Shown here: piece by piece, positions 19,623 through 40,774 of the stretch
Layout of the letters: every line of letters begins with the position of its first letter
Position numbering within the stretch: the stretch's first letter is position 1
Assembly: GCA_963662405.2 (NCBI GenBank)
Contig: CAXXKT010000003.1
Location: 96,001-160,000 of the forward strand
Length of the DNA: 64,000 nucleotides
Source of the DNA: Syntrophales bacterium
Lineage (GTDB): Bacteria > Desulfobacterota > Syntrophia > Syntrophales > UBA2210
Reading direction: 5' to 3'
Position numbers and translations under genes: made by a program
The notes under the pieces: model-generated
What the model saw: only the letters and a program-made list of their open reading frames with translations
Told to the model about the DNA's origin: nothing
The model's database searches: none

Positions 19623-20735
19623 TTAAACGGCCAAAGCATAACACCTCGCAACCTTACTCATCTCTACATATTTCGGGTCTGGCAGCATTTTCGATGGATC
19701 AAACGGCTCCCCCTTCTTCAAGATGGCATATACAATAGTGCTCATCTTTCGCGCCGTCGCTATTACGCTCTTCCCGGTTCCCTTGTTCTCTTTCATGGCT
19801 TTGTATTTGTACATAAGCCAATATCCATCGGTTTTATTCCGAAGCCGTAGCATCCCCATTACCATTTGCACAAAAGCCGTCCTCAGTTCCACGGGGCCTC
19901 GCTTGGTAATATGACCATGGCGAATGGTCTTGTTGGAGTTTTGAACCCATGGTACCAAACCGGCATGAGCAGCATACTGCTTGGCGCTCTCATATCGGTT
20001 GATGTCATCGGTATAAGCCCGAATCGTCGCTGCTGTTATTATTCCAACGCCAGGAATCGTTTGCAACAGAGCAACATCCTCGTCTTCAGAAACAAGATCA
20101 GATAATACGCGCTCAAGTCCTTTGACCTCGGATGCAATTTGGTCTATTGTACCAAGAAGCGGTTTTACCGCTCGGGCAGCGTTTCCGTAACTCCTATGGT
20201 CCGCGAGACCGTCAAGGATTCGCTGCCTTTCTTTTTTGCTCTGCAGCTGTCCCCGCCGACTCTCTATCCCATATCCAAGCAATAAACCGTGTATCTGGTT
20301 TTTCAAGGATACCAAAGCTTTCACCAGAACAGAACGTGACTTGAGAAGCCTTCGAATGTCCTCGCTTTCCTGCGAACAAAGAATGGACTCGGGAAGCATA
20401 TCTTTCTCAAGAAACTCAGCCAATGTGCGGGAATCATGCTTGTCAGTCTTTTTTACTGACTCATTTACAACCTTGAATTTCAAGGTGTTCACTATCTTGA
20501 CCTCAATCCCCGCCTTCAAAAACCGGTTGCGAAAGTGTCGGGTGTTCCCTGTTGATTCCACCGCTGCCGTGACCTCGTAACCGCCCTCATTCCAGTTGGA
20601 CACCTTCATGATAAATGCCCGGTAACCTCGATCAGTCGTCGGGTAGATGCCCGACTCCTGAACACTCCGATCTTCACTCAAACAACAAACGGTAAACTGC
20701 GTCTTGTGAAGGTCAACCCCGATACTCATCTTCAT
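19623..20735 (-). CDS. IS110 family transposase/recombinase (DEDD)
   Basis: GVDLHK, VES, KTDKHDS, TIPGVG, GLVP..QNS, HITKRGP, ATARK. Confidence 0.95.
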   Translation of the reverse strand: MKMSIGVDLHKTQFTVCCLSEDRSVQESGIYPTTDRGYRAFIMKVSNWNEGGYEVTAAVESTGNTRHFRNRFLKAGIEVKIVNTLKFKVVNESVKKTDKHDSRTLAEFLEKDMLPESILCSQESEDIRRLLKSRSVLVKALVSLKNQIHGLLLGYGIESRRGQLQSKKERQRILDGLADHRSYGNAARAVKPLLGTIDQIASEVKGLERVLSDLVSEDEDVALLQTIPGVGIITAATIRAYTDDINRYESAKQYAAHAGLVPWVQNSNKTIRHGHITKRGPVELRTAFVQMVMGMLRLRNKTDGYWLMYKYKAMKENKGTGKSVIATARKMSTIVYAILKKGEPFDPSKMLPDPKYVEMSKVARCYALAV

Positions 20736-20769
20736 AGAACGCCTCCTCACATCTTGGACAGCGCCTGTC

Positions 20770-20935
20770 AGGTGAATTGGTCCCAATCTCCTATTCGATC
20801 TCGAAGATCATTGAATGTTGCGGCTACAGCTCTTCATTCTCCTTTGCGGTCTCGAAGACCAGTAAACATGTCGAACAGTAGCCTTGCTGCCCAAAACTAT
20901 AAAGTTTCAAACAGTGTATCCCAATTCACAGCTCA
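20770..20935 (-). ncRNA. Putative IS110 bridge/seek RNA
   Basis: Two similar loop modules around GATC-TCGAA-GATC and GGTC-TCGAA-GACC hairpins, with flanks matching the donor and target junctions; outer pairing GTGAATTGG/CCAATTCAC. Confidence 0.65.
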
Positions 20936-25018: not shown

Positions 25019-26701
25019 TTACCGTGTCAGGTGCCGGTATTTGATCCGGTGGGGCTGATCGGCGTCTTTGCCGAGCCGCTTCTTCCGATCGGCCTCGTAG
25101 TCGGAATAGTTCCCCTCGAACCAGACGACGGAGCCGTCCCCCTCGAAGGCGAGGATGTGCGTGGCGATCCGGTCGAGGAACCAGCGGTCGTGGCTGATGA
25201 CGACGGCGCACCCCCCGAACTCCTCCAGCGCCTCCTCGAGGGCCCGCATCGTGTTCACATCCAGGTCGTTGGTCGGTTCGTCCAGGAGGAGGACATTGGC
25301 CCCCTCTTTCAGCATGCAGGCGAGGTGGACGCGGTTGCGCTCCCCCCCGGAGAGCATGCCCACCTTCTTCTGCTGATCCTGCCCGGCGAAGTTGAACCGC
25401 CCCACGTAGGCCCGCGAGTTCATCTCACGCTGCCCCAGCCTGATCAGATCGTTCCCCCCGGTGATCACCTCCCAGACGGACTTGTTCGGATCGAGCGTGT
25501 CCCGTTCCTGATCCACGTACGCGAGCGCCACCGTCTCGCCCACCCGGATCGTCCCCGCGTCGGGGGTTTCCTTCCCGGTGATCATCTTGAAGAGGGTCGT
25601 CTTCCCCGCGCCGTTCGGCCCGATGATCCCGACGATCCCCCCCGGCGGCAGGGCGAAGGTCATCCCCTCGAAGATGAGCCGGTCGCCGAAGGCCTTGCTC
25701 ACCCCCTCCGCCTCGATCACGGTCTTGCCGAGACGGGGCCCCGGCGGGATGTAGATCTCCAGGTCCTGCGCCTGCTTCTCGTAGCTCTGGTTCATGAGGG
25801 ATTCGTAGGCGTTGATACGGGCCTTCCCCTTCGCCTGGCGCCCCTTCGGCGACATGCTGATCCATTCCAGCTCCCGCTGCAGGGTCTTCTGCCGTTCCGT
25901 CTCCCTCTTCTCCTCCTGCTGGAGCCGCTGCTGTTTCTGCGCGAGCCAGGACGAGTAGTTCCCCTTCCAGGGGATCCCCGCTCCCCGGTCTAGCTCCAGG
26001 ATCCAGCCGGCCACATTATCCAGGAAATACCGGTCGTGGGTGACGGCGATCACCGTCCCCTCGTACTGCTGAAGGTGGCGTTCGAGCCAGGCCACCGTCT
26101 CGGCATCCAGGTGATTCGTCGGTTCGTCGAGGAGCAGGATGTCCGGCTTCTGCAGCAGGAGACGGCACAGGGCGACGCGCCGCTTCTCGCCGCCGGAGAT
26201 CACCCTGATCGGCGTATCCCCCGGAGGACAGCGCAGGGCGTCCATCGCCATCTCCAGGCGGGAATCGATATCCCACAGATCGAGATTGTCGATCTTCTCC
26301 TGCAGCTCGCCCTGCCGCTCTATGAGGGCGTTCATCTCGTCGTCGGACAGGGGCTCGGCGAACCGTTCGCTGATCTCGTTATACTCCTTCACCAGTGCCA
26401 CCGAATCCCGCATCCCCTCCTCGACCACCTCCTGCACGGTCTTGTCGGGATCGAGGAGCGGTTCCTGTTCCAGAAAGCCCAGCGTGTACCCCTGCGAGAG
26501 GACGGCATTTCCGTTGTATTCGTCGTCGACGCCGGCCATGACGCGCAGGAGCGAGCTTTTGCCGGACCCGTTGAGCCCCAGGACGCCGATCTTGGCGCCG
26601 TAGAAATAGGAGAGGGATATATCCTTCAAGACCTGCTTGTTCCCGTGGAACTTGCTGACCCTCATCATGGTATAGATAATCTTTTTCGCGTCATCGCTCA
26701 T
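25019..26701 (-). CDS. ettA: Energy-dependent translational throttle ABC-F protein
   Basis: Tandem ABC domains, DISLSYFYGAKIGVLGLNGSGKS, C-terminal PHRIKYRHL. Confidence 0.95.
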   Translation of the reverse strand: MSDDAKKIIYTMMRVSKFHGNKQVLKDISLSYFYGAKIGVLGLNGSGKSSLLRVMAGVDDEYNGNAVLSQGYTLGFLEQEPLLDPDKTVQEVVEEGMRDSVALVKEYNEISERFAEPLSDDEMNALIERQGELQEKIDNLDLWDIDSRLEMAMDALRCPPGDTPIRVISGGEKRRVALCRLLLQKPDILLLDEPTNHLDAETVAWLERHLQQYEGTVIAVTHDRYFLDNVAGWILELDRGAGIPWKGNYSSWLAQKQQRLQQEEKRETERQKTLQRELEWISMSPKGRQAKGKARINAYESLMNQSYEKQAQDLEIYIPPGPRLGKTVIEAEGVSKAFGDRLIFEGMTFALPPGGIVGIIGPNGAGKTTLFKMITGKETPDAGTIRVGETVALAYVDQERDTLDPNKSVWEVITGGNDLIRLGQREMNSRAYVGRFNFAGQDQQKKVGMLSGGERNRVHLACMLKEGANVLLLDEPTNDLDVNTMRALEEALEEFGGCAVVISHDRWFLDRIATHILAFEGDGSVVWFEGNYSDYEADRKKRLGKDADQPHRIKYRHLTR

Positions 26702-26822
26702 GGCATATCCCTCTTATGTTTTGAAATTTTCCGGCATTTCCTTCTGCCGACGGCTTCTCTATCAGTTTGTCCCGGACTGCACAACAGGAAAACATGAACT
26801 CTACAGGCACCGACCAACCGCC

Positions 26823-27056
26823 TCATTCGATCTCGATCACGGCGCCGCAATCCTCGCACCGGTACCGGACCTTTCCCCGGTCCGGCGCTTCGACCTCGTC
26901 GAAGTCATAGTGCCTTACGCCCCGTACCTCATAACACTCCGGGCAATACCCGTCGCCCAACTCATCGGCGTCGATGGTCAGATGACAGTGACGGCACCGC
27001 AGGACGGTATTCTTCCCCTGCAGCAAAATCAGGTTCGGGTGCCTGCATGCATCCAT
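26823..27056 (-). CDS. Small zinc-ribbon protein
   Basis: CRHC, CPEC, CEDC motifs. Confidence 0.7.
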   Translation of the reverse strand: MDACRHPNLILLQGKNTVLRCRHCHLTIDADELGDGYCPECYEVRGVRHYDFDEVEAPDRGKVRYRCEDCGAVIEIE

Positions 27057-27072
27057 ACGATATTTCTTTCCC

Positions 27073-27306
27073 TCAGTTCTCCGACGAACCGGACGCGGGA
27101 CCGACCGCCCTGACCCGGCGGCCACCGCAGGCGACCGTCTGCCCGTCCCGTATCTTGGAGCGCTTCCGGTATTCCACGGTCCCGTCAACGCTGACCAGCC
27201 CCTCTTCGATCGCCAACTTCGCCCTGCCGCCTGTATCACAGAGACCGGATGCCTTCAACAACCGGTTCAGCTCGATATGATCACCTGAGAATGTAAATGT
27301 TTCCAT
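27073..27306 (-). CDS. RNA-binding S4 domain protein (YbcJ/YaaA-like)
   Basis: IELNRLLKASGLCDTGGRAK..IEEG.V.VDG..E.RKR.KI. Confidence 0.88.
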   Translation of the reverse strand: METFTFSGDHIELNRLLKASGLCDTGGRAKLAIEEGLVSVDGTVEYRKRSKIRDGQTVACGGRRVRAVGPASGSSEN

Positions 27307-27649
27307 TACTTTTTGCCGCTCCTCAGGGCGGTATATACCATATCGGGACGATCTATGAGAAGGGTGGAGACATGGAAAACAGTCAGATCTTGAAACTCGG
27401 CCGCTTCAGGTTGGATGGGTTACAAAAACAAAGGTTGATATGAAATGCTTGTTATTGTTGTTGTCTGGTGAGTGAACAAATTCGGTCATGCTAACTGAAA
27501 TATATCTTACCTTTGCTGCGAATAGAGGAGAAAGCAACAGTCAATGAACTGGAGTTGTGCTTGACCTTTCAGTTTTAAAAAAATTTCTTGACAATACAGC
27601 ACCATGAAGTTAGGGAATTTCTGTTTTGATCTTTATCTGTTTTATTTGC

Positions 27650-27734
27650 TTGTGGACAGCTATAACCATGGGGGAGGATTATGGTCTGATCATCAAAGCC
27701 CTGTTTCTTTGAAAAGAGATGGGGCTTTTTTTGT
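27650..27734 (+). promoter_or_regulatory. Conserved leader with SD, ATG-GTC-TGA mini-ORF and intrinsic terminator (copy A)
   Basis: Homologous to 41103-41188 (-); TTGACA at 27588-27593 upstream. Confidence 0.6.
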
Positions 27735-27988
27735 GCACGGTTTAGCAAGGGAGATGCGATATAAATTATTTGCCAAATGATTTCAAGTGAATAATTTTTA
27801 ACAATTTAATCGGAATCTACACTCGTTAAGAAGCAAATAAAAGGTTGATTGTGGAATACCATGAATCTTTATCCGCCTTCCCTTTGCAAACGATCAAAAA
27901 GATTAAATCCCGTTAATGGGTAAAAGATATCTATAGCTAGTTTCACAGTTTTGTTTTCTTATACAAAAATTGATCTGAGGTTTTGTAA

Positions 27989-29325
27989 GTGGTAAAATCT
28001 GAATATAAACAATATGATTCAGAATTGGCAGATAAAATAGGAGACCGATCACTTATATGGATCGGGGCACGTGGGTGCGACATCTTGCCACTTTTGCACA
28101 TGCCACAATTGAAAACTGTTTTTTCAATTATTTCTCCAATGCGAGCATTTGGTGTGCAGGATTTGTGCTACGAATCACTTACCCAAAAACGTGTTGATCT
28201 TGATTCATATTCTATAGATTATGACAATTCAAATGAAGCGGGAGAAATTCGCAAACAGCTTTTTGATGCGCTTAATCACAATTGCGTTGCAGTTCCCTAT
28301 CGCCCACTTCGTTTTTTTGCTTCAATATACTATCCCCGGACAAAATTTGTTGAATATCTCGGATTATTTCATCAAATGCAAACAGCATTTGAGCACAAAA
28401 TATGGGTTGAAACAGAATTAAATAATATGGGATTAATGTTATCCCTTGGTTATATAAAACAAATATGGATAACCCACGTGCTTTGATTGGTGAATACCTT
28501 AATAGCGGATCACTGGTTGTTCGCCTAAACCGGTCAACCGGTGGAAATGGGTTGTTTCTCATTAATGATTTAAATGAGTTCGATTCACTTTGGAATAAAC
28601 TTGTCATGCATGAGGAAGGTTACTTTTCTGTTGCCCCATATTATTATCCCAGCACGCCAATAAATTTAAACTGTACTGTATTTCATGATGGGAACGTTGC
28701 TTTACACGGGGCGTCTGTTCAGATTATTGGGGACCCATTACTAACGAATTTGAAATTTGGTTTTTGTGGAAATGACTACGGAAAAATTAAAGACATTGAA
28801 CCTAATATGCTGGACCGTATAGAGCAGATGGCTCGCAAAACTGGTCTTTGGCTTGCATCGGTTGGATATCGAGGGAGTTTTGGTATCGATGCACTGTTGG
28901 TGGGGAGTGAAGTATATCTAACAGAAATTAATCCTCGTTTTCAGGGTTCTTCATCTTTAGCTGCACAGTTTGACAGAGATGCTGGTCGCCCTGACGTCTT
29001 CCAAACTCATATGGGTTCATTCTTTGGATTGAAAGTGCCTAAACAATATTCTCTACGAGAGATTGTTGTTGCTCAGCCAAACATTTCACAAATAATATCG
29101 CACAATATATCTAATGGGATCGAACATGTTGAAAATGATATTGGATTTTGTGATTCCGTTAATTGTAAATTAAGCACCCTGCCGGATAAAAATATTGACA
29201 TACAGCCAAATGGAGTCCGTTTTAAGATGACTATTAATGAAAGTGTTGCCGATGAAAACGGCAGATTGTTGGAAAGAGTAATCCCATATCTCACGTTTGT
29301 AATGAAAAATATCATTGTCTCATAA
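27989..29325 (+). pseudogene. ATP-grasp family ligase split by an apparent 1-bp frameshift near 28430
   Basis: ORFs 27989-28486 and 28465-29325 join as ...ETELNNMG/INVIPWLYKTNMDNPR...; ATP-grasp motifs STGGNG, FGIDAL, TEINPRFQGS. Confidence 0.7.
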
Positions 29326-29344
29326 TGACAGAGAGAGGTATGAA

Positions 29345-31117
29345 ATGAACACATGTACACCAGATCAAATCATTAAAAGTCTAAAAAAGGGTGCATTCAC
29401 TCCTTTTATTGGTGCCGGTGCATCCGGACTCAGGGAAAATGCACAGCCGGATGAGTATCATTGCATGGGGCTTATGCGCTCCTATCGAAATTCTACTACA
29501 TATTTCAGATATGGCAAGTTACTATCTTCGGGTCTTGCACCTTCACAAATAGAATATCTTAAAATACTTATAAATGTTGACGCGGATAAATCTATGTCTT
29601 TATTTGAATTATGTAAAGGGATGGCAGATAAACTGTATGAAGGTCAATTGTTGAAATTTCAGAAAATGCTCCTTTCGGTAATTATTAATCTGACAAATAC
29701 AGCAGGAAAACGATTTGCAGATGGTTCGTTGATTTCAATTAGCGAAGATAATAATTATATAACAATGATGCCTGATGAACAAAAAGAACTTGTTGAACCA
29801 TTTGTTAAGCTAATAAAGATTACAGAAGAACTATCAAGTGTTGACGAGACAGTGTGCTGTGAAAACTGTAAAGAAGGTTCAAAGCAAAAAGAGTGTCTTT
29901 TTGTTTTAAGAGATCACTTCCGTCCGAAATACATTACGTATCGCTTAAAGTTGTTAGCAAATTTTCTGCTAACAGCGGGTCAAAGAAAAGAAATACAATC
30001 ATTTAAAATAAAAAGTGACCTTATCAAATCAATACTTGAAGATCGCCAAAAGCATAACGGTTGCTTTTTCTTGAGTGAACTTGAATGGCTCAAACAATTG
30101 CTATGGCATAGTATTCGTTTTGATGATCCGCAATTACCATCAACACGTGAATTAATGTTCCAAATGACAATTGAGACCATAGATGGATTGCCAATGATAG
30201 GTGAGTTGCCGCAGGTCGCGGAACGGACGGATGTAACGGGAGGACAAGGATCGGGATATAGCGAGGAATGTAGTATCAAAGTTATTCAACGATGTTTTGA
30301 TTATTGTAATAAAAAAACCAAATTAAACTCACCTAAATTTTATCAAATTATGGCAGCTCTGCTCAATGAACAATATAAAGCGGTAAGAGATAATAAATAT
30401 CCCGAAATCGTTTCTGGAATGCACTCACTGACGGTTAATGGAAGAAAACCAATCATTGCTTTTACGACAAACTATGATAATAACTTAGAAAATGCACTTT
30501 GCAACCTAGGCTGTAACTACCATGTTGTGTATCCGGTAAGGCGATTACAAAATGTTCAGGAAAATCTCAAAAAAGAAGAAACTGATATATCTTGGCATGT
30601 CGCCACTTTCCATATTGATAATAATGATGCTGTCTCACAAGGTGATCCAGAAATAATTGATCAAGAAGATCTTATAGGGGCATTTATTGATCGTGACCTG
30701 ATTGGCCCGATTATTGTCAAGCTTCATGGCGCGCCATTTATGCCATTAAGAGATAACCTCTTTAAGCATTTTGTTTTATTGTCAGAAAGTAATTATCTCA
30801 CTTCTCTTGTTTCAAACAATGCACTGGATGTTCCTCAAATATTTTTAAAAAAAGCGAGATTTTACAACCAAAACATCGAATGTAAACACCATTTGTGGTT
30901 TTTCGGATATTCTATATCAGATTGGAATATACGAATTGCCTTATATAAACAGTTGCGTGATCGTAAAAGAAACGAAGAACACAGGCGTGCAATAACACAC
31001 GGTTCAAATTATTATAAAATTGCATTGTTTAGCAAACTTGATATTGATTATGAAGAAAAAGAACTGTCTGAATCTATGGAAGATATAAGCGTAATGCTTG
31101 GGGAAGCATTTAAGTGA
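29345..31117 (+). CDS. SIR2-like domain protein (SIR2_2 type) with large insertion
   Basis: PFIGAGAS, FTTNYDNNLE, KLHG, FFGYSISDWNIR. Confidence 0.82.
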   Translation: MNTCTPDQIIKSLKKGAFTPFIGAGASGLRENAQPDEYHCMGLMRSYRNSTTYFRYGKLLSSGLAPSQIEYLKILINVDADKSMSLFELCKGMADKLYEGQLLKFQKMLLSVIINLTNTAGKRFADGSLISISEDNNYITMMPDEQKELVEPFVKLIKITEELSSVDETVCCENCKEGSKQKECLFVLRDHFRPKYITYRLKLLANFLLTAGQRKEIQSFKIKSDLIKSILEDRQKHNGCFFLSELEWLKQLLWHSIRFDDPQLPSTRELMFQMTIETIDGLPMIGELPQVAERTDVTGGQGSGYSEECSIKVIQRCFDYCNKKTKLNSPKFYQIMAALLNEQYKAVRDNKYPEIVSGMHSLTVNGRKPIIAFTTNYDNNLENALCNLGCNYHVVYPVRRLQNVQENLKKEETDISWHVATFHIDNNDAVSQGDPEIIDQEDLIGAFIDRDLIGPIIVKLHGAPFMPLRDNLFKHFVLLSESNYLTSLVSNNALDVPQIFLKKARFYNQNIECKHHLWFFGYSISDWNIRIALYKQLRDRKRNEEHRRAITHGSNYYKIALFSKLDIDYEEKELSESMEDISVMLGEAFK

Positions 31118-31147
31118 TATACAAAAAAAATATATGTGGGGATAGTA

Positions 31148-33172
31148 ATGGAAAATGAAATCATAAACCCTTTTGTAGGTGCCATACCTTATGATGAGAG
31201 TCATAGCAAGTATTTCTATGGTAGAACTGCCGATATTAGGAGAGTTTATGGAGATGCAAGTATACAAAGGCTATCAATACTAGCCGGTGGCAGTGCTTGC
31301 GGTAAAACTTCTTTCCTTCAAGCGGGCTTGATTCCTGCAGTGAAACAATTGCGCTTACAAAGTGGGAAAAATGCGCAACCACCTGTAATACTTATACGTG
31401 ATTGGGCGAAGTGGCGTATTGGATTAAAACCGTTTTCATCCTTGGATGAATTTAAAAACCAATTTATGGGACTGTTAGAAATTGCTGTAACGGATATGGA
31501 TGAGATTTCGATTAGCGGCCAATCAGCGGAGGATTTGTACAATGAACTAAAAATAAAAGGTGTCATGCAAGTACTATTAGGGTTGAGTGAGGCTTTTAAT
31601 GGACTATATGTCATATTTGATCAGTTGGAAGAGCTTTTTGTTTCACATACATTTGCAACCGAGACAGTTTGTGATTTCTTGGCAGAACTTTACTATCTTG
31701 ATGATCGGATAAAAATTATTGTTTCATTACGACAGGAATATGTTCATGAATTGCGTACGCTTGAAAAAACTATTGGCTCTATCATGCAACGTACATGTTT
31801 TTTGCCACCACTAAAACGAGAGCAGAATTCAACGGCCTCAATAATGGTTGCCATTAAAGGTATCTTTAACTCTGTTAATATCAATATTGATGATTCGGTC
31901 ATATATGAAGTTGCAGACCGCTGTAGGCTATATACAAAGATAGAGGGTGACCGTAGATATGGTGGAGAAATCAATTTGCTTCAAATCCAGGCATTTTATT
32001 GGGAATTCTTCAATGTCTTAAAGTCAAATCCACGCGATAGTAATCATAATAAAGCTGTATTTGATCAATTTCTTAAAGACAATGCGGTCACTGCCAGGGT
32101 TTTGGAGAAATATCTAGAATGTATAAGGGCGATGTATGATTATACTGAACCTCTTGAAGTGTATGATAAAGCACTTGTCAGGTGGATTGACACAAATTTG
32201 TCTGACAATATAGGTAAGATGAGTGAAGATATCCAAAAATACATATATGATAATAACATTTCTGGCAGATTGGGTGGCATCAGATGGTGCTTGACTAGAC
32301 TGTCCTCTCACTTGTCAAGCAATGATTATAAGGTACCTATCAATAGAGACGAACATAAAGCTCGACTATTAAAAAATGCATTAAATAGTGAGGAAGAAAA
32401 GAACCTTCGAGAGCTATTTGATGTAGCAATTGATTTCCTTGGAAAAATCAATGTATTGAAAAATTCAGATGGACCAATATCAGAACTGGTACATGACCAG
32501 TTAGGTCAAAGTATTAGGATCTGGAGCGAAATGTTTGAAAACAGTTGGCAAGACTCTATCTATTCTCCAATAACTAACAGAGGCGTATATTTGAAACCAA
32601 TAAGAGTCACCATTGATAAAATTAGTGACAACTATAATGATAGATTTGTGGGATGCATCATTAATGGGGAAGAAAATTCAAGTCATTCTGATAGTGCAAC
32701 ATTCAAAGGTATAGATTTTCATAAATGGGATTTTACGGGGTCGATATTTAAAAATTGTATATTTGACGATTGCACTTTTTCTCAGGCTCAATTGCAGGGT
32801 CTTATTTTCTGGAATTGCATATTTAGAAATAATACTTCCATAAAGGATATAACATATGAAAGCAGTCAACTGGATATACGGGGAGGTAAAATTGAAGATT
32901 TGTCCATAATAGATAGTTGCTTAGAGCAATTAAATTTGTATCCAAATATTGATGACGACATTCCAATAATATTTACAAAAAATAGTTCACTTGTCCTGAG
33001 GAATACCTGTGTGAGGCTTTCTTGCTTCAAGGATCTTCACGGAGAGGCCGAAGCGATTTCGTTGGATGAAAAAAGCCGATTTGAATTCTGTCTGTGGGAT
33101 AAAGTAAGTGCGAATTATATCAAGGCTTCTGCACATCAAATGATATCATGTGGCCTATTGAAAGAAGAGTAA
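31148..33172 (+). CDS. STAND-like (nSTAND1-type) P-loop ATPase with C-terminal pentapeptide-like repeats
   Basis: NPFVG...FYGR, Walker A GGSACGKTS(FLQAGL), Walker B VIFDQLEELF, ELVHD; C-terminal FTGSIFKNCIFDDCTFSQAQL. Confidence 0.78.
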   Translation: MENEIINPFVGAIPYDESHSKYFYGRTADIRRVYGDASIQRLSILAGGSACGKTSFLQAGLIPAVKQLRLQSGKNAQPPVILIRDWAKWRIGLKPFSSLDEFKNQFMGLLEIAVTDMDEISISGQSAEDLYNELKIKGVMQVLLGLSEAFNGLYVIFDQLEELFVSHTFATETVCDFLAELYYLDDRIKIIVSLRQEYVHELRTLEKTIGSIMQRTCFLPPLKREQNSTASIMVAIKGIFNSVNINIDDSVIYEVADRCRLYTKIEGDRRYGGEINLLQIQAFYWEFFNVLKSNPRDSNHNKAVFDQFLKDNAVTARVLEKYLECIRAMYDYTEPLEVYDKALVRWIDTNLSDNIGKMSEDIQKYIYDNNISGRLGGIRWCLTRLSSHLSSNDYKVPINRDEHKARLLKNALNSEEEKNLRELFDVAIDFLGKINVLKNSDGPISELVHDQLGQSIRIWSEMFENSWQDSIYSPITNRGVYLKPIRVTIDKISDNYNDRFVGCIINGEENSSHSDSATFKGIDFHKWDFTGSIFKNCIFDDCTFSQAQLQGLIFWNCIFRNNTSIKDITYESSQLDIRGGKIEDLSIIDSCLEQLNLYPNIDDDIPIIFTKNSSLVLRNTCVRLSCFKDLHGEAEAISLDEKSRFEFCLWDKVSANYIKASAHQMISCGLLKEE

Positions 33173-33202
33173 GAAAATGAACGAAGTATTCAGGATAGTA
33201 TA

Positions 33203-34273
33203 GTGCTATCTACACCTCAACAAGCTAAATTTGAAATCTTTTCGCATGGGCTTTCTGTTCACTCAACTGCCAATGATTTGTTACATGATCTTTGGAATGA
33301 TAGGCCATTATCATTAGTAGATTATACGACAACTTCAGGTTTGACTATTAGACTCGAAAATGATGTCTGGATCAATTCGCCATTATCCAGTTACAATAAA
33401 AATTTTGTTAAATCACCAAAATGGGAATTAGTTGTATCAAACGGGCATTTTTACATCGAATCATCATCTGCGCAACTTAAAGCAGAGCCGATATCAGTTC
33501 CCCAGTATTACAATAAAAAAAATCAATGGGGAGAGCCATATATAAAATATATTAAAACACATGCTGACCGTGCACGGATATCGCCGATCGAAGGTTGTAG
33601 TTATTCATGTCATTTCTGTAACTCCAGCTATAAAAATAAATACAAGAAAAAGAAGATCGAATTTATGATTGACGCCATTAATATGGCCCTGCACGATCCT
33701 TGGTTGCCTGCTCGTCATTTGTTAATATCTGGTGGAACCCCTTTTTTAAAGGATTATGGCTATTTGCAAGAAGTTTATTGTGCCGTCCCAAAAAAATTCC
33801 CAGACTTGGAAGTAGATGTGATGATGGTTCCAACTCCTGGTTTATTACAGTTTGAAGAGTTGAAAAATGGAGGTATTAAGGGAATCTCTATCAATATGGA
33901 AATCTACAATGACGATGTGGCAAAGAAAATTATGCCTCAAAAAGCATTGGAAACCCGTGAAGGGTTTCTAGGGCATCTTCATCATGCGGTGAAAATATTT
34001 TCTCAAGGTAAAGTAAGGTCTTTACTTTTGGTAGGACTTGAGCCGATTGAAGATACGCTAAAAGGAGTTGAAGCACTGGCAAGAATTGGTGTTGATCCTG
34101 TATTGAGTGCCTTTCGACCTGATCCTAATACCCCGCTTGGAAATTATCCTCCGCCATCAGTAGAATTTCAGAAAAATGTGTATTTGCGAAGCTTGGAAAT
34201 AGTTTGTAAGTATCCAGGAGTGAAGCTTGGTCCCCGATGCAAACCTTGCCAACATAATGCGATTGCCTTTTAA
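33203..34273 (+). CDS. Radical SAM protein
   Basis: CSYSCHFC (CxxxCxxC), ISGGT, SINMEI, LLVGLE, FRP, C-terminal CKPC; GTG start. Confidence 0.88.
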   Translation: MLSTPQQAKFEIFSHGLSVHSTANDLLHDLWNDRPLSLVDYTTTSGLTIRLENDVWINSPLSSYNKNFVKSPKWELVVSNGHFYIESSSAQLKAEPISVPQYYNKKNQWGEPYIKYIKTHADRARISPIEGCSYSCHFCNSSYKNKYKKKKIEFMIDAINMALHDPWLPARHLLISGGTPFLKDYGYLQEVYCAVPKKFPDLEVDVMMVPTPGLLQFEELKNGGIKGISINMEIYNDDVAKKIMPQKALETREGFLGHLHHAVKIFSQGKVRSLLLVGLEPIEDTLKGVEALARIGVDPVLSAFRPDPNTPLGNYPPPSVEFQKNVYLRSLEIVCKYPGVKLGPRCKPCQHNAIAF

Positions 34274-34369
34274 TTCTGGCTTTGTCCATGAAAAGTAGTG
34301 GCAGTCCGCTTTCTTTTTGGGGTACCCTGTCTTTTCTATAAAAATGGCGAGTATTCCTGAATTCTGTGG

Positions 34370-35305
34370 TCAAACAGCAAGTCTGAACTTTTCATATCTC
34401 CGTTCTAATAGATTGGGGTCGGGCCAGGCGTTTGAGGATCGTGGGAGTATGATTTTCTTCAGGTGCATTCCCTGGAGTCCATGGAGCAGCATGGGGCCGT
34501 CTTTTTCTTTCAGGATATCGTCTCGAACTTCGATGACGTAGTCGGGTCGTATCCCGATCATGAAACGGTCAAAGGCCGCATGGTGGAATTTGCAGAGGGC
34601 AACACCGTTATTCACAATGGGTTCACCGTCGGGCTCTCCATCAGGGATGATATGTGCCGCATCCAAAAGTTCCAGATGTTTGAGACGACAAAAAGCGCAC
34701 TGCTCCCGATATGCATGCAGCACCCGCTCGCGGAAGCCGCGTTGGTGTAATCTCTGTTTGACGGAGGTTGTGATATACAGTCTGCGGATGTCTGAATCCG
34801 TTTCCGAGATTGGCGGAGCGCAGTCTTCGGAATCAAAGTATTGATTCACTGTTTTATAATCATCAACGGCAACCGTGAACGTCAATTTCTTCGGATCATC
34901 TCCTACAATATATACAGGCCATGCGGCCAGATATTTGCCCGGCACAACGCTGTGGAAGTAAATGAGCGGAATATTGTGGAGCATAGCATTTCGAAGCCCT
35001 ACATTTGCACGGTGGCGTGGATTGGTCCCTCGATACCTGTATAAAAGGAGTCCTTCCGGTGTAAACCCATCATCATAGTGTCCGGATGTTGTTGTCGTAA
35101 TCGAAAGGGGATATTCGGGAAGTATCTTTGGCTTAAAAATGCCTTCTGGGGAAACGAGAGAAATTCGCTGATCTTCAAAAACAAATCCCTGCGCAAGGAT
35201 TGTTCTCTGAAGCACATCGCCGTGAAGGTTGACCTGTTCGGATAGCCACGCGAAAGCTGCAATGCGTAAACGCCTATCCAAGTCTTGTTCAAGATTGATG
35301 CGCAT
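34370..35305 (-). CDS. HNH endonuclease with putative SRA/PUA-like N-terminal domain
   Basis: HQRGFRERVL.AY..CAFC..LLDAAHII..NGVALCKFHHAAFD. Confidence 0.88.
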   Translation of the reverse strand: MRINLEQDLDRRLRIAAFAWLSEQVNLHGDVLQRTILAQGFVFEDQRISLVSPEGIFKPKILPEYPLSITTTTSGHYDDGFTPEGLLLYRYRGTNPRHRANVGLRNAMLHNIPLIYFHSVVPGKYLAAWPVYIVGDDPKKLTFTVAVDDYKTVNQYFDSEDCAPPISETDSDIRRLYITTSVKQRLHQRGFRERVLHAYREQCAFCRLKHLELLDAAHIIPDGEPDGEPIVNNGVALCKFHHAAFDRFMIGIRPDYVIEVRDDILKEKDGPMLLHGLQGMHLKKIILPRSSNAWPDPNLLERRYEKFRLAV

Positions 35306-35365
35306 ATAATCAATCAAGGTTTGTTATTGTTCATTTATAAAAAAGAGTTTTTCCATATTATCTTT

Positions 35366-37057
35366 TTATTTTCTAAGTCTTGCCTTTTTAGCTTTTACAA
35401 TAATTGATGCAAATCCAATGGCTTTTTCCAAACCATCTTCCTCTGCTGCATAACTTAAGAGTTGTTTTCCTATATCCTTTTCATTGAAACCATTCTTTAT
35501 TATGTGATCGGTTATTCTATCAAGGGTTCCTTGTTCAAGAGGCAAATTTGTTTGCGTTTGTTTTTGTGGTCTGGTAGGCCAAAAATGAGGTGTTTCATTG
35601 ATCAATACACCTTCGCTTTTCGTAAAAGTATCTTTTAGTTGCATGCTTTCATCCTCAATCCCATTTGGGGGCACACTTTGGGGGGATATGTTTGAAAGTT
35701 TCTCACGATGTTTTAACAAAAGTGTCTGGTTAAAAGAAGCTTTGTAAAAACGCCAATATTGGGAGCCCGTAGCATTTTTCTGTGTAATCGCTTCACCTAA
35801 TGGATTTATAATTCCCAAACCGTAAAGTGCTACTTCTTTATTGTTTAATTGTCCGACAAAATCAATTGTTGATTTTGGCAGATTCCAGTGCAAGAGGTCA
35901 GGGTAAAAAAACTGAGGCTTAGGTCTCCCACAACTGATCTCATATAGCCTTTCTGCCTGTGAAACAAGATAGTCATAATCGAGAACCCTCTGAGGAGGTT
36001 CACTGTTACTGTAGGTTCCTAATATTGCGCCAGCCATCGTTGCAATGGTATCGGTATCACTATCGAGAGTATTGGCACATATTTCTATGCCTTTCGCTGG
36101 ATCTCCTGAAAAGAAATAAGCGATGTAAGTGGCTAAAAGAGCGGTCTTAGTAGCTGATCCACGTTTTGCAGGATTAAATGCATCAATGTTTTCCGCTATT
36201 GAGCGATATCTTTCCTCTTTGTCCCTTTCTTCGCGAAGTAAACCAATCCCCGTTTCCTGCAATATCTTGTTGGTCGTTTTGATATCCCCCATCATCTCGT
36301 CGATAGTATCTTCTACGGCACTTTCCAATTTCGTTTGAGCTTGTTTTTCCCAAGAGGGAAGCCATATATGATTTAGAAGCTTATCTTCTTTGCAAACATT
36401 AACAATTAATTTTGCTTTAGTTAGAATCTTATCCCAAATATCTGGGGGAGGACACTCCCCTCCAATCAATGCCTGACGTAGAATCAAACCATGGAATACT
36501 GCACCTACCCAGCCGACAGGATGTCCATGGGTAATAATTGAATCTCTTATAATTTCTCTAATTAATGCTTCGTCTGATAAAGCACTTGACGCCGTCCATA
36601 CATGAGGCTGAATACGCATTGCAGCGCCATTACCTCCAACATCAGTATAACGATGTGTTGGGGTTTTAAAAAAGTTAGTATTCCACTGAACCGTCTTCTT
36701 TTTTAAAGATTCAGCCGCAGCTTTCGTACCTTTGCCCATCCCCAGACCATACGCAAGAAAGACGGGTATTTCAATTTTAGAAAACGTCTCAAAATCGAAT
36801 TCCCCATCTTTTCTTATGCTACGACATACTGCCAATCGTAACTGGGTATCATCCGAATAAACACCTTCCGGAAGTTCAATTGAAACACCGTATTGCCCTC
36901 CAAGCTTTCGCCTCCATCCAATAAGTCCTTTCACACGACCAAGTCCGCGTGTTCTATATTTAAGCCTTTTTACATCACTAAGCTCCGTGATAAACCCTAA
37001 GGCATCACCATATGCAGCCCAAAGCATTGAATTTTTAATTGATTCGAAAGTATTCAT
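35366..37057 (-). CDS. ADP-ribosylglycohydrolase (ARH/DraG family) with C-terminal extension
   Basis: AYGDALG, YSDDTQL, GNGAAMRI, ITHGHP, DTDTIATMAGAILG. Confidence 0.9.
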   Translation of the reverse strand: MNTFESIKNSMLWAAYGDALGFITELSDVKRLKYRTRGLGRVKGLIGWRRKLGGQYGVSIELPEGVYSDDTQLRLAVCRSIRKDGEFDFETFSKIEIPVFLAYGLGMGKGTKAAAESLKKKTVQWNTNFFKTPTHRYTDVGGNGAAMRIQPHVWTASSALSDEALIREIIRDSIITHGHPVGWVGAVFHGLILRQALIGGECPPPDIWDKILTKAKLIVNVCKEDKLLNHIWLPSWEKQAQTKLESAVEDTIDEMMGDIKTTNKILQETGIGLLREERDKEERYRSIAENIDAFNPAKRGSATKTALLATYIAYFFSGDPAKGIEICANTLDSDTDTIATMAGAILGTYSNSEPPQRVLDYDYLVSQAERLYEISCGRPKPQFFYPDLLHWNLPKSTIDFVGQLNNKEVALYGLGIINPLGEAITQKNATGSQYWRFYKASFNQTLLLKHREKLSNISPQSVPPNGIEDESMQLKDTFTKSEGVLINETPHFWPTRPQKQTQTNLPLEQGTLDRITDHIIKNGFNEKDIGKQLLSYAAEEDGLEKAIGFASIIVKAKKARLRK

Positions 37058-37075
37058 TATTGCTCCCTGTTAATA

Positions 37076-37708
37076 TTAGAAAAGCTCTCTCCGTACTTCG
37101 CATTCTATATGGTTCCAATCCCTAAATAATGATTTTATACTGTCAAACGCATTGGCATCATCGTCATTTGCTACATAAGCCTTATTAAGGTAGCGTAGAG
37201 ATACTTCTCTCGGGTAAAGAACTTCTGCTTGATTACAAGTCGGTTGATTATCAGACAAAGATGCCGGACGAGTGATGCCGTTTCCATACCATTTGACTAT
37301 GTTTGGAGCAAACATTGCCTCCAGACCTACAGAGCCTTGATGGCGTTCAACACCACTATACATATTGTTCGTGGTGGTAAAGTATACGCCATCGTGCGCG
37401 CAAATTTCCGGAGAAAAAGATAGGATACACCACCACCCATCTTCACGCGCATGCCAGTTGCCGGCAGCAATTCCAAAAAGGTGGCGATTGACTGATGTAA
37501 TCGATAAATTTACATAATCCCACCATTCTTTATCTCTTTCTCGGTCCGCACAGTTATATTGATAGATATACTCGAGATAGTCATCTTCTGCTAGAAGGTT
37601 ACGAGCTTTCAAAGAACCAGTAGCCAAAATACCAGTAACACCTTTATTTGTTGTAAAATGAAGGATTTCTTTTATTTTCCGCTTTTTTATTATTTCTTGG
37701 ATAGTCAT
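37076..37708 (-). CDS. DarT-like (DUF4433) DNA ADP-ribosyltransferase
   Basis: LHFT...GIL..G.L, YVNLSI, FTTTN, QAEVL catalytic Glu motif. Confidence 0.8.
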   Translation of the reverse strand: MTIQEIIKKRKIKEILHFTTNKGVTGILATGSLKARNLLAEDDYLEYIYQYNCADRERDKEWWDYVNLSITSVNRHLFGIAAGNWHAREDGWWCILSFSPEICAHDGVYFTTTNNMYSGVERHQGSVGLEAMFAPNIVKWYGNGITRPASLSDNQPTCNQAEVLYPREVSLRYLNKAYVANDDDANAFDSIKSLFRDWNHIECEVRRELF

Positions 37709-39105
37709 AGTACAATATCGTTATAAGTATCTGTAGCCAAACAGTCAAGAAGGGAAGAGGGATCATCGGGCTTACACCCGAGAGTTACCGTCATGCGAGC
37801 TCTCGTTATTGTCATGGCAAGTAATCGTCTCAGATTTTCCCAAGAAGTATCACCATCTTCATCTCCATGTTGTGTAATTTCTTCATTCAATCCTAAAATG
37901 TATATGTGATCAAATTCCAATCCCTTTGCCGAATGCATGCTAATTAAGGCGACATTGTCATGCCCTTGAGGCCACTCTGACTGTCGGGTCAATTCGACAA
38001 AATTGAGTCCGTTTTTAGTTAAATCTGTGCGAAGCGTCTTAAACCATCCCCCAGCCTTGGGGTGAACAAATGCAACGGACTCTTCGTCAAGGTTAATATG
38101 TTTAATTTCTGAAATAACATAGGTACACTGTTCTGAATACCTGCCTCTAAGCAGTTTCGGCTTTGATCCATTGCGAAAGCACGAATCCAAATCTGGGATT
38201 GTACCATCGTCACTTAATTCCAAGCCCTCTAATAGCGGCTTTGCCAATCGACAGATTTCGATGGTGTTGCGGTGATTTTCTTCAAGACGAAAGCTGCGAT
38301 TGGGGTTTAATGTAATACCAACTTCACGCCAGGTCCAACCCCTCGGATAGATCTGCTGTGCCTTATCTAGAACAAATACCATCGTACACGGATCAGCAGC
38401 GTGTTGCTTAACAGCACGTATCTGGTTTGCAGAGAAATCTTGTGTTTCATCTGCAATAATAATATCGTATCTTATATTCTTCGGCGAATTGATAAGTTCT
38501 AGTGCTAAATCATTCCAGTCTCGGATTGCTTCCTCTTGTTTAAATTTTTCATAAGGTACTATTATTTCATTGACAAGGCGTTCTCTTGTTGCTTGTTCCA
38601 TTCGCGGCGTGATGCCACGTCCTTCCCGTTTAATGCTTAAGTATTTACCCCTATCATCAGGGTGGAATCGTCCCATACAGTATTCAACTTCGTCACACAA
38701 AAAATCTTCTGGCAGCCGCAACCCTTCATTGAACTCAATCAGCTTTTCCTTTTGCAGTCTATAGTCGATAATATTTTCTATACGTGTCAAATCCTTAGAC
38801 CATTTCCCGAACGTAGAGACATTGATTTTTACTCGTGAATGTGTCGTAATTTGTTGTTGTGCAAGATGGGAGATGTATCCACGGAGAGTCCTGTTATACG
38901 TAAGCACAAGAATCTGAACAGGGTTAGGGTTATCATTTCTTTCACGGTGGCGGAGCCAGAACTCCGACAGTTGCTTAAGCATCAGGAGTGCTGTAGTGGT
39001 TTTACCAGATCCGGCAGCACCGCGAATTACAGTAACACCTGCTTGGGGATTCGAAATAATAGGTAATTGTTCCGCAGTCGGAGGAACGTCAACTAGTACT
39101 TTCAT
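37705..39105 (-). CDS. Compact UvrD-like superfamily 1 helicase/ATPase
   Basis: GAAGSGKTT, LTYN, DETQDF, Q.IY, NHRNT, HSAKGLEFD, TRAR; overlaps the DarT start. Confidence 0.88.
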   Translation of the reverse strand: MKVLVDVPPTAEQLPIISNPQAGVTVIRGAAGSGKTTTALLMLKQLSEFWLRHRERNDNPNPVQILVLTYNRTLRGYISHLAQQQITTHSRVKINVSTFGKWSKDLTRIENIIDYRLQKEKLIEFNEGLRLPEDFLCDEVEYCMGRFHPDDRGKYLSIKREGRGITPRMEQATRERLVNEIIVPYEKFKQEEAIRDWNDLALELINSPKNIRYDIIIADETQDFSANQIRAVKQHAADPCTMVFVLDKAQQIYPRGWTWREVGITLNPNRSFRLEENHRNTIEICRLAKPLLEGLELSDDGTIPDLDSCFRNGSKPKLLRGRYSEQCTYVISEIKHINLDEESVAFVHPKAGGWFKTLRTDLTKNGLNFVELTRQSEWPQGHDNVALISMHSAKGLEFDHIYILGLNEEITQHGDEDGDTSWENLRRLLAMTITRARMTVTLGCKPDDPSSLLDCLATDTYNDIVL

Positions 39106-39167
39106 TACATACTCCCACTCACATTTTTGGAGTTAGTTTTCTGCCATCTATCCGGTCTTTCAATACT

Positions 39168-39256
39168 CAAAACAAAAAACCCCGCTATCTCCTCTCAAGA
39201 AACGGGGTTTTGCATTCAATCACTACACGGTACTCTCCTGTGTCGGGTGTAGATGA
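39168..39256 (-). promoter_or_regulatory. Leader with SD, GTG-TAG and intrinsic terminator (divergent copy C)
   Basis: CAGGAGAGTACCGTGTAGTGA...AAAACCCCGTTTCT...GGGGTTTTTTGTTTT; TTGACA-N16-TATTTT upstream (about 39296-39323). Confidence 0.5.
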
Positions 39257-39376
39257 AACATTTCAAACTTTTGAAAGAATCTGAACAGTTAGGGTAAAAT
39301 ACACCCTGAGACAAAAATGTCAAGTAATTTCGTTGTGAAGCTTAATGTGTAAAAAATATATAATCCATGGCCCGAT

Positions 39377-40774
39377 CTATTGATACTCCCCCATAAATTT
39401 TCTGTACTCCGGGTGTTCGACGAGCAGGCGGCCGCCGACTTCGATGAGTTTGTCGACTTGTGTTTCGCTGAGGTTGAACGATGTGGGGAGGTTGTTGAAA
39501 TATTCCTTTTCCTGTTCGTCGGCAAGGTTGTTGAAGCAGAGATCGGCGACGTAGAGTTTCAGGTTGCCTCCCGCGAGAGGTTTTATTTTGAAACCGTCGG
39601 TGCTGTGCCGGTCGAGGAGGTTCTGACAGGCGGTGGAGTATTGCTGGGCCTTGATCCGTTCGCCCATCGTCTCTTTGAACATCTCCACGGTCTCGAAGGA
39701 GTAGTTGTCCATGGAGACGGTGGCCGTCTTGAATCCCACCTTTGCCAGTCCCGGCGGGCTCTCTTTCCGGTCGCAGTTCTCGCGTTTCTCCGTCTTCGCG
39801 TTGACGACGATGACGAGGAGGCGCTTGATCTTCCCGTTGTTGATCTTCTGGCGGATATCGCTCCGCACGTACAGGTCGTAGATCGCCCGGAGGCCGAGGT
39901 TGTCGGCGAGCCCCCCGTCCATCAGGTGGAGCCAGGGGTGCGCCTCCCGGTCCGCGTAGATGGTGTTGTTGTATGCCGCCCAGTAGCGGCGCTGGTTGAC
40001 CCAGTAGTCCCGGAGGGCGAGGGTGTCTTCCGTATCGGGTGCGCAATCCGCGGCGCCGCAGTAGTTCGCGAGGCTGATGGGGGAGAGGAGAAAGGGAAAG
40101 GCGGATGACGCGGCGACGGCCCGGGCGACGGGGTAGGTGAGAAGGTCGGACCCGATGTAGTGGAACTGGCGGCCGGTGAATTCGAAACGGGCGCCGGTGG
40201 AGAGGTTGGTCGCGTTCATGATCAGGAAGGGGCGCGCGGCCTTTTCGGCCAGCGCGGCGAAGGTCCGGGATTGGAAGATGGTGTCGTTGTACAGTTCGGC
40301 GGCCAGGTCGATCCGGCTGAAGTACGGGGAGGCGAGGCGGACCCAGTTGTAGGGATTGGTGAGTTTGAGGAAGAGTTCCCGTTCGATGTTCCGGTTGAGG
40401 AATCTCTCCTCGAAATCGTCAAAGATCCGTTCCCCGAAGAGAGCGTAGTAGGCCCCCGTGAAGGACCCGCCGGAGACGGTGGATATGACGTCGACCTCGT
40501 CCAGGAGCGACCGGCCGTCGGGGAGGCGGATCTCCCGCATCTTCCTGAGGACGCCGTAGGAGAGGGCGGCCGCGCGGGTGCCGCCGCCGGAGAAGGTGAG
40601 GATGACGAAGGTCTCGTCGGCGTCGGCGGGTTCGGTGAAGCGGTCGAAGGCGTACGGGGCGGCCGGTTCGGGTTGCGTGAGGGGCTCGTTGAGCGGGTAG
40701 TGGGCGCAGCCGCACAGAACGACAACCGCGACAACCGCAAGGGCGAGACGGATGGTATGATTATACCTTTTCAT
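39377..40774 (-). CDS. Patatin-like phospholipase, predicted lipoprotein
   Basis: LCGC lipobox-like, SGGGTRAAA, STVSGGS, DGG. Confidence 0.9.
   Translation of the reverse strand: MKRYNHTIRLALAVVAVVVLCGCAHYPLNEPLTQPEPAAPYAFDRFTEPADADETFVILTFSGGGTRAAALSYGVLRKMREIRLPDGRSLLDEVDVISTVSGGSFTGAYYALFGERIFDDFEERFLNRNIERELFLKLTNPYNWVRLASPYFSRIDLAAELYNDTIFQSRTFAALAEKAARPFLIMNATNLSTGARFEFTGRQFHYIGSDLLTYPVARAVAASSAFPFLLSPISLANYCGAADCAPDTEDTLALRDYWVNQRRYWAAYNNTIYADREAHPWLHLMDGGLADNLGLRAIYDLYVRSDIRQKINNGKIKRLLVIVVNAKTEKRENCDRKESPPGLAKVGFKTATVSMDNYSFETVEMFKETMGERIKAQQYSTACQNLLDRHSTDGFKIKPLAGGNLKLYVADLCFNNLADEQEKEYFNNLPTSFNLSETQVDKLIEVGGRLLVEHPEYRKFMGEYQ

Follow-up and report, generated by a model that had tools for sequence, protein, structure and literature searches.

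Proteins of the STAND or NLR type that act with SIR2, TIR or protease effectors are an already known kind of prokaryotic immunity. In one SIR2 system, Kongming (KomABC), the SIR2 NADase is turned on by dITP, a small nucleotide that an enzyme produces. A combination of enzymes that matters for what follows is the PylB-PylC pair from the biosynthesis of pyrrolysine, in which a radical SAM (S-adenosylmethionine) enzyme and then an ATP-grasp ligase act on amino acids and build a new small molecule. The locus described here lies in a stretch of 64,000 nucleotides from a Syntrophales bacterium (contig CAXXKT010000003.1, positions 96,001 to 160,000), referred to below as the window. Positions 27989-34273 of its plus strand hold five co-oriented open reading frames representing four genes, which encode an ATP-grasp ligase, a SIR2-like protein, a STAND NTPase and a radical SAM enzyme. 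On balance, the comparative evidence leads us to favour the view that these four genes are one conserved and horizontally spread conflict system, most likely antiphage, in which a STAND/SIR2 pair would be coupled to a small-molecule module. The genes are as follows.

Window 27989-28486 and 28465-29325, plus strand: the two open reading frames that make up the broken ATP-grasp gene (27989..29325); the second matches ATP-grasp_3 PF02655 with 29.7 bits (cut-off 23.2).

Window 29315..31117, plus strand: SIR2-like gene; SIR2_2 PF13289 with 31.5 bits (cut-off 24.5).

Window 31136..33172, plus strand: gene for a STAND NTPase of 678 residues; nSTAND1 PF20703 with 76.8 bits (cut-off 27.1), followed by pentapeptide repeats at about residues 517-600, Pentapeptide_3 PF13576 with 36.3 bits (cut-off 27).

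Window 33203..34273, plus strand: gene for a radical SAM protein of 356 residues; Radical_SAM PF04055 with 47.9 bits (cut-off 29.5) and NCBIfam NF045502 "variant_rSAM" with 134.2 bits (cut-off 125), to which family it belongs.

The spacing is tight: -11 bases between the ATP-grasp and SIR2-like genes, 18 between the SIR2-like and STAND genes and 30 between the STAND and radical SAM genes. A sequence-only reading of the window, made without database searches, had described four closely spaced, co-oriented genes with these motifs, and this description was borne out, each domain scoring above its curated cut-off. It had also named co-occurrence elsewhere as the check on whether the genes belong together, and this check was passed from both of the directions in which it was made.

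Two sets of related loci were collected from opposite anchors. A pattern scan of one genome per species gave 51 loci anchored on the radical SAM gene. The reverse search, with an alignment of six SIR2-like proteins against metagenome contigs, gave 17 loci, 15 of them distinct. Gene content was read with hidden Markov models made from the loci's own open reading frames and scanned in all six frames. The ATP-grasp gene was found in 47 of the 51 radical SAM-anchored loci and all four genes in 27, which by record titles and tree labels belong to Acidobacteriota, Actinomycetota, Pseudomonadota, Chloroflexota and Gemmatimonadota. Seen from the SIR2-like side, a STAND gene adjoins in 14 of the 15 distinct loci and 11 have the complete set; in three of the remaining four the contig breaks off immediately next to the genes. 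L064 is the only SIR2-like-anchored locus without the enzymes that is not cut that close, with 1.4 kb visible upstream and 2.5 kb downstream. Three loci are partial: no ATP-grasp gene is present in L013, L047 breaks off within SIR2, and L050 retains STAND alone, in broken frames.

Several gene orders occur. Wherever a SIR2-like and a STAND gene are both present, the former lies immediately before the latter, with no change of strand. The order of the window (ATP-grasp, SIR2, STAND, radical SAM) recurs in L020, L028 and L030; permuting it cyclically, so that the radical SAM gene moves to the front, gives the order seen most often (radical SAM, ATP-grasp, SIR2, STAND). A quick tree groups the radical SAM protein of the window with those of L020 and L028 (SH-aLRT 91). 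The distribution of the set is patchy. Forty relatives of the window's genome were searched (7 congeners, a further 17 from its family and another 16 from its order), and none yielded the radical SAM gene. Two carrier families, each sampled at 100 other genomes, yielded no SIR2-like gene, only the first 12 candidates being scored in each genome. Judged by gene content, the four genes are thus a conserved unit with a sporadic distribution, and because of this conservation elsewhere their grouping in the window is more than chance.

It might be supposed that the locus merely brings together a STAND-SIR2 pair for defence and a pair of metabolic enzymes, modules without relation to each other that happen to be neighbours in a defence island. 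Such islands do accumulate unrelated genes, and the island around the four genes also carries HNH and DarT modules (see below). However, the pairing was recovered from both anchors, across five phyla and in several gene orders, and L064 stands alone as a SIR2-anchored locus that lacks the enzymes and is not cut right beside its genes. We regard this explanation as very improbable and close to refuted.

The SIR2-like protein has 600 residues when read from the TTG at 29315 (590 in the gene caller's version, P0001). It consists of a glycine-rich loop (GAGAS), a helical insert of about 350 residues and then the motifs TTNYD and KLHG; we take the three motifs to be the NAD loop, the catalytic Asn and the catalytic His of sirtuins, respectively. 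An AlphaFold2 model (pLDDT, the predicted local distance difference test, 71.5) was compared with known structures by Foldseek; the matches were KomC (E 1.4e-4), SIR2-HerA, ThsA, DSR2 and SPARSA, and only defence SIR2 proteins were among the matches listed. In its predicted fold, its glycine-rich loop and its Asn and His the window's protein agrees with a defence-type SIR2 NADase.

A profile of 19 members retrieved 585 cluster representatives of the family at E<=1e-30 from 1.84 billion proteins. The best 150 of the 585 mostly cover nearly the full profile, helical insert included. Among these 150 the catalytic His is kept in 62 and the Asn in 64, both in 54 and neither in 78, and the Asp is invariant, as is the Gly that follows the His position. 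Other effector domains recur in the family and beside it. Of 23 hand-picked representatives with an N-terminal extension, 21 carry TIR_2 and one carries CHAT. A separate TIR_2 gene lies between the STAND and radical SAM genes at L017:9126-9941 and L031:8980-9999, and it is in exactly these two loci that Thr or Cys replaces the catalytic His of the SIR2-like protein. In actinobacterial loci a CHAT gene adjoins the gene set. Among the aligned loci the His is replaced in 11, 8 of them with TIR or CHAT in cis, and kept in 7, 2 of them with a fused TIR; as several of these loci are close kin, the counts describe a trend and are not a test. Read in this way from domains and residues, the family shows effector swapping, with an active SIR2 in some members and TIR or CHAT in others.

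The STAND protein, a member of the nSTAND1 clade by Pfam, has the Walker A motif GGSACGKTS and the Walker B motif DQLEEL. Residues G56, K57, S59, D162, Q163, E165 and E166 are invariant across 20 orthologues including that of the window, which have further invariant motifs in common. One natural protein of 1279 residues, P0268, is a fusion of the SIR2-like part with nSTAND1 and pentapeptide repeats. This fusion, together with the constant adjacency of the two genes, indicates that the SIR2-like and STAND proteins are coupled. A complex predicted from STAND residues 1-400 and the whole SIR2-like protein scored 0.01 and 0.00 against a mark of 0.32, which counts neither for nor against such a complex. 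The proposal of the sequence-only reading that STAND and SIR2 act as sensor and effector gains support from the antiphage SIR2 folds matched by the model, from the SIR2-STAND fusion and from the apparent swapping of effectors. Its suggestion that the pentapeptide region may be a DNA mimic for the sensing of phage proteins found no support in the analysis.

Of the two enzymes the radical SAM protein is the better defined. Its CxxxCxxC motif (C132/C136/C139) is invariant in 28 sequences, and both a beta-rich domain at its N-terminus and the sequence GPRCxPCxHN at its C-terminus are conserved. At least 467 relatives were found in a word-indexed protein search, the best being about 45-52% identical. 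The AlphaFold2 model (pLDDT 91.8) has as its nearest folds MqnE, HydE, ThiH, LipA, BioB and PylB, at a template modelling score of about 0.5. These are full-barrel enzymes acting on small molecules, and none is specific enough to name the reaction. A search of the ESM Atlas returned only clusters labelled "radical SAM protein", and a search of the PDB with the radical SAM profile returned only weak matches to ThiH, HydG, HemN and MqnE.

The same enzymes could in principle modify a peptide or protein instead of a free small molecule, the substrate being a precursor like those of peptides made on the ribosome and modified after translation (RiPPs) or the STAND and SIR2-like proteins themselves. 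The sequence-only reading had listed protein modification among its options, and RiPP pathways are known to include both ATP-grasp and radical SAM enzymes. In the four-gene loci, however, there is no space for a conserved small open reading frame for a precursor, and none was seen: the gaps in L020, L028 and L030 are 96-222 bases, and the radical SAM gene of the window is followed by a gap of 97 bases. The C-terminus of the radical SAM protein, with two conserved Cys and one His, is not a SPASM domain, and Pfam shows only the radical SAM core, with neither the RRE nor the SPASM domain that would mark a RiPP enzyme. Since the fold is in addition nearest to small-molecule enzymes, and the enzyme pair is also found without STAND or SIR2, we consider modification of a peptide or protein quite improbable.

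The ATP-grasp gene of the window is broken. Taken together, its two pieces match intact orthologues (436-475 residues) over their whole length. The reading frame shifts at about 28427-28434, and 28426 is where the second frame becomes open. The upstream frame gives ...FEHKIWVETELNNMG, followed by nonsense as far as a stop, and the downstream frame reads (Y)GINVIPWLY...; in intact orthologues FEHKPWVETxL...GVxVIPWxY lies in one frame. The same letters, with no insertion or deletion, were present in separately assembled contigs from three public runs of one sample (depth 2-9). Because of this agreement the frame break looks genuine and not an assembly slip; the sample is probably the one from which the genome came, and the check is to that extent not independent of the source. 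A programmed frameshift was considered and rejected, as no slippery heptamer was seen at the break. The local copy may be impaired by the frameshift. The EINPRFQGSS site is intact in the window's protein. Its named matches, all weak, are to biotin-carboxylase-like proteins and amino-acid ligases, and a search of the PDB by sequence gave no match.

The two enzymes frequently belong to a larger cassette. An aspartate-carbamoyltransferase-like gene directly follows the radical SAM gene in 37 of the 51 loci (TIGR00670, cut-off 237: 243 bits in L003, 198 in L008), 24 of the 51 have a nitroreductase gene, and a second, RaSEA-like radical SAM gene is sometimes present. The window, L020, L028 and L030 are without the carbamoyltransferase-like and nitroreductase genes. 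At L018:11038-13278 (plus strand), from a metagenome-assembled genome of Thermoanaerobaculia, the carbamoyltransferase-like and ATP-grasp parts are in one open reading frame of 746 residues, which may reflect either a genuine fusion or an error of assembly.

Other genes recur next to the set. A gene for a decarboxylase dependent on pyridoxal phosphate (PLP) adjoins the sets of L020 and L028. Genes for Liv/Urt-type ABC permeases (BPD_transp_2) adjoin the set in L005, L008, L009, L013, L030, L060 and L063, and in L008 and L009 a fused permease-ATPase gene directly follows it. As a hint drawn from these permease genes, the enzymes may be supplied with an amino acid or a urea-like compound taken up from outside. 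In the acidobacterial loci L004, L006, L009, L010 and L026 a gene for pentapeptide repeats plus TIR (e.g. L009:6835-8994) and an ISAzo13-type transposase gene lie just upstream of the cassette.

These neighbours bear on the possibility that the locus is a cluster for a specialised metabolite (a cofactor, an antimetabolite or a modified amino acid). The STAND and SIR2-like proteins would then control production or keep it safe, for instance as sensors of the product or of an intermediate, and would not be antiphage. The core cassette (radical SAM, carbamoyltransferase-like, ATP-grasp, nitroreductase and second radical SAM genes) does exist without STAND or SIR2, genes for the PLP decarboxylase and the permeases recur nearby, and most members of the SIR2-like family are without catalytic residues. 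Against this, domain scans found no DNA-binding domain in the STAND or the SIR2-like protein, the swapping of TIR, CHAT and active SIR2 is a pattern of immune effectors, the distribution is extremely patchy, and the copy in the window lies in a low-G+C island beside nuclease and DarT genes. We hold a metabolite cluster of this kind to be unlikely, and still the most plausible of the explanations that compete with a conflict system.

If the four genes are a conflict system, its parts can be assigned provisional roles. The nSTAND1 NTPase would be an ATP-driven switch and the SIR2-like protein its partner. In the variant of the window, in which the NAD-site motifs are kept, the SIR2-like protein would itself be the effector and destroy NAD+; in other variants, in which the catalytic Asn and His are lost, a TIR or CHAT domain would take over this role. 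The radical SAM enzyme and the ATP-grasp ligase would together make or alter a small molecule derived from an amino acid or a nucleobase. This molecule would have a functional link to the switch: most plausibly, the Rossmann domain of the SIR2-like protein or the pentapeptide region would read it as a ligand; alternatively it might itself be the antiviral product. STAND/SIR2 pairs persist without an intact ATP-grasp gene in the window and apparently in L013 and L064, which weakly favours a ligand that activates, or a product that is antiviral, over an inhibitor that sets off the effector when lost. In its most specific form the proposal is that the enzyme pair makes an immune ligand, that the SIR2-like Rossmann receptor and the NLR-like nSTAND1 switch read it, and that an active SIR2, a TIR or a CHAT protease is then fired. 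We offer this chain only tentatively, as a possibility clearly less probable than the existence of the conflict system as such.

Several observations weigh against a conflict system made of these four parts. The ATP-grasp gene of this very genome is frameshifted. Both the SIR2-like and STAND genes are missing from 21 of the 51 radical SAM-anchored loci, at least 6 of which are on contigs of less than 6 kb. In ten loci, from small genomes of the candidate phyla radiation (CPR; Patescibacteria) and of DPANN-type archaea, the cassette occurs without SIR2 or STAND; nine of the CPR/DPANN radical SAM proteins group together in the quick tree, nested among bacterial ones (SH-aLRT 92). Since the enzyme pair occurs without the SIR2/STAND switch, the enzymes must have a role that does not need it. 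Likewise, because the catalytic Asn and His are both lost in over half of the SIR2-like proteins compared (78 of the best 150), cleavage of NAD+ is not the common function of this family. The surroundings of the related loci say little: a non-ABC PADLOC match at E<=1e-5 lies near 10 of the 18 fully sampled loci, a figure that has no baseline and comes from models many of which are generic, so that known-defence neighbours are only suggestive of defence. Finally, viral contigs scanned with the radical SAM and SIR2 alignments gave no confirmed relatives, phage records gave one partial match of 39% only, and plasmid records gave only MSMEG_0568-type paralogues of 26-29% identity. The lack of confirmed viral or phage relatives fits a cellular system and says nothing about phage.

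The four genes lie in an island of about 12 kb (about 27.3-39.3 kb of the window) with a G+C content of 35-42%, against about 55% in the remainder of the window and about 57% in the genome. It is bordered by an S4-domain gene and an ABC-F gene on one side and by a patatin-like gene on the other. The ABC gene at 25019-26701 was considered as a Liv-type transporter and rejected, being an ABC-F ATPase at host G+C whose likeness is that of ABC proteins in general. The remaining features of the island and its left flank are these.

Window 27695-27728, plus strand: terminator-like hairpin of 15 pairs followed by a T run, 260 bases upstream of the operon.

Window 34370-35317, minus strand: gene for an HNH_2 nuclease of 315 residues, convergent with the radical SAM gene.

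Window 37705-39105, 37076-37708 and 35366-37057, minus strand (opposite to the four genes): operon for a UvrD-like helicase, DarT and an ADP-ribosylglycohydrolase of 563 residues, respectively.

Window 19623-20786, minus strand: gene for an IS110-family transposase, about 7 kb left of the island, with a G+C content below that of its surroundings.

Nothing coding was seen upstream of the hairpin within the island. The hairpin is also the source of a sub-threshold match to Rfam NsiR1 (30.4 bits, cut-off 39), one of only two sub-threshold matches returned when a riboswitch was sought with Rfam over 26500-39500. The C-terminal half of the HNH_2 nuclease resembles restriction enzymes dependent on phosphorothioate DNA (NF045808, 59.9 bits, below the cut-off of 180), and its N-terminal 170 residues have no assigned domain. 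In the neighbouring operon DarT, whose PADLOC match is weak (2.6e-7), is paired with an ARH-type hydrolase and not with the macrodomain protein DarG, and a helicase is added. No tRNA gene was found in the window and no integrase domain in the scanned open reading frames of the island and its flanks.

Should the proposed chain hold, it would add a new branch of metabolite-controlled NLR immunity, whose chemistry derives from a cassette also present, without the switch, in CPR bacteria and DPANN archaea. If the enzymes make the ligand of the switch, this would be a new class of signalling chemistry in bacterial immunity, with an NLR-like protein under the control of an endogenous metabolite; if they make an antiviral compound, it would be a new natural product. 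With some 585 SIR2-like cluster representatives and a cultured carrier of the gene set, Pseudolysinimonas yzui CGMCC 1.16548 (L021), the family is common enough to study, and its catalytic and non-catalytic SIR2-like forms are a natural experiment on effector replacement.

How does the locus compare with what has been described? The sequence-only reading knew of no named system with all four genes, and the searches agree. Against PADLOC-DB v2.0.0 (2023) the four proteins gave nothing but an 18-bit viperin-core match of the radical SAM protein; the STAND protein matched no family of this release at E<=0.01, and hence no Avs or NLR-type model, and the SIR2-like protein matched none. A literature search found no paper combining SIR2, ATP-grasp and radical SAM. 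The terms "radical SAM" and "ATP-grasp" are absent from the main text of the study that names the nSTAND1 clade (eLife 10:e70394), as they are from the main text of a 2026 survey of defence STAND proteins.

In architecture the locus resembles the STAND/NLR-like systems Avs and bNACHT, in which a STAND NTPase with C-terminal repeats is combined with a cell-killing effector (SIR2, TIR or protease). In the present system, by contrast, the effector is on a separate, always adjacent protein that contains a helical insert, the C-terminal repeats are of the pentapeptide type, and two biosynthetic enzymes are conserved partners. With Kongming the locus shares the defence-type SIR2 fold, KomC being the nearest solved SIR2 structure among the matches listed. 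It differs in that no deaminase or HAM1 domain was found in the proteins of the island or in the scanned proteins of related loci, in the presence of a STAND NTPase, and in that the enzymes making the signal, if that is their role, would be a radical SAM enzyme and an ATP-grasp ligase. NAD+ depletion by a SIR2 domain is the effector mechanism of Thoeris, DSR1/DSR2 and SIR2-HerA, all of which are close in structure to the model of the window's protein. Thoeris is marked by a SIR2-SLOG ThsA together with a TIR protein, ThsB, DSR by a protein of about 1000 residues and SIR2-HerA by a HerA partner; the island has no SLOG or HerA domain and the set no long DSR-type sensor region, and the set does not belong with any of them.

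The enzymes also have partial counterparts. Prokaryotic viperins (pVip) are radical SAM enzymes in a defence context that make small antiviral molecules. The radical SAM protein of the window was rejected as a pVip, since PDLC02904 scored 18.4 bits over 70 residues and NF038283 (viperin_w_prok) 16 bits against 180. The sinefungin pathway was dropped as a model, its radical SAM enzyme being B12-dependent. PylB is represented among the radical SAM fold matches by structure 3t7v; however, NCBIfam, which presumably includes models for PylB and PylC, gave no match to either at E<=0.01 for the radical SAM or ATP-grasp protein, the proteins of the window have different N-terminal domains, and there is no PylD. 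The nearest named paralogue is the MSMEG_0568 radical SAM family (TIGR04043), of which the protein is not a member (78.8 bits, cut-off 303.7). A further counterpart is the cassette of radical SAM, carbamoyltransferase-like, ATP-grasp and nitroreductase genes, with a radical SAM protein of the same family (46-50% identical to that of the window) and a homologous ATP-grasp protein; in the window, SIR2 and STAND take the place of the carbamoyltransferase-like gene, the nitroreductase gene and the second radical SAM gene, none of which is present there. With no described match in the catalogue or the literature searched, we place the candidate system with the STAND-plus-effector kind, as a form joined to an enzymatic module for which these sources have no description.

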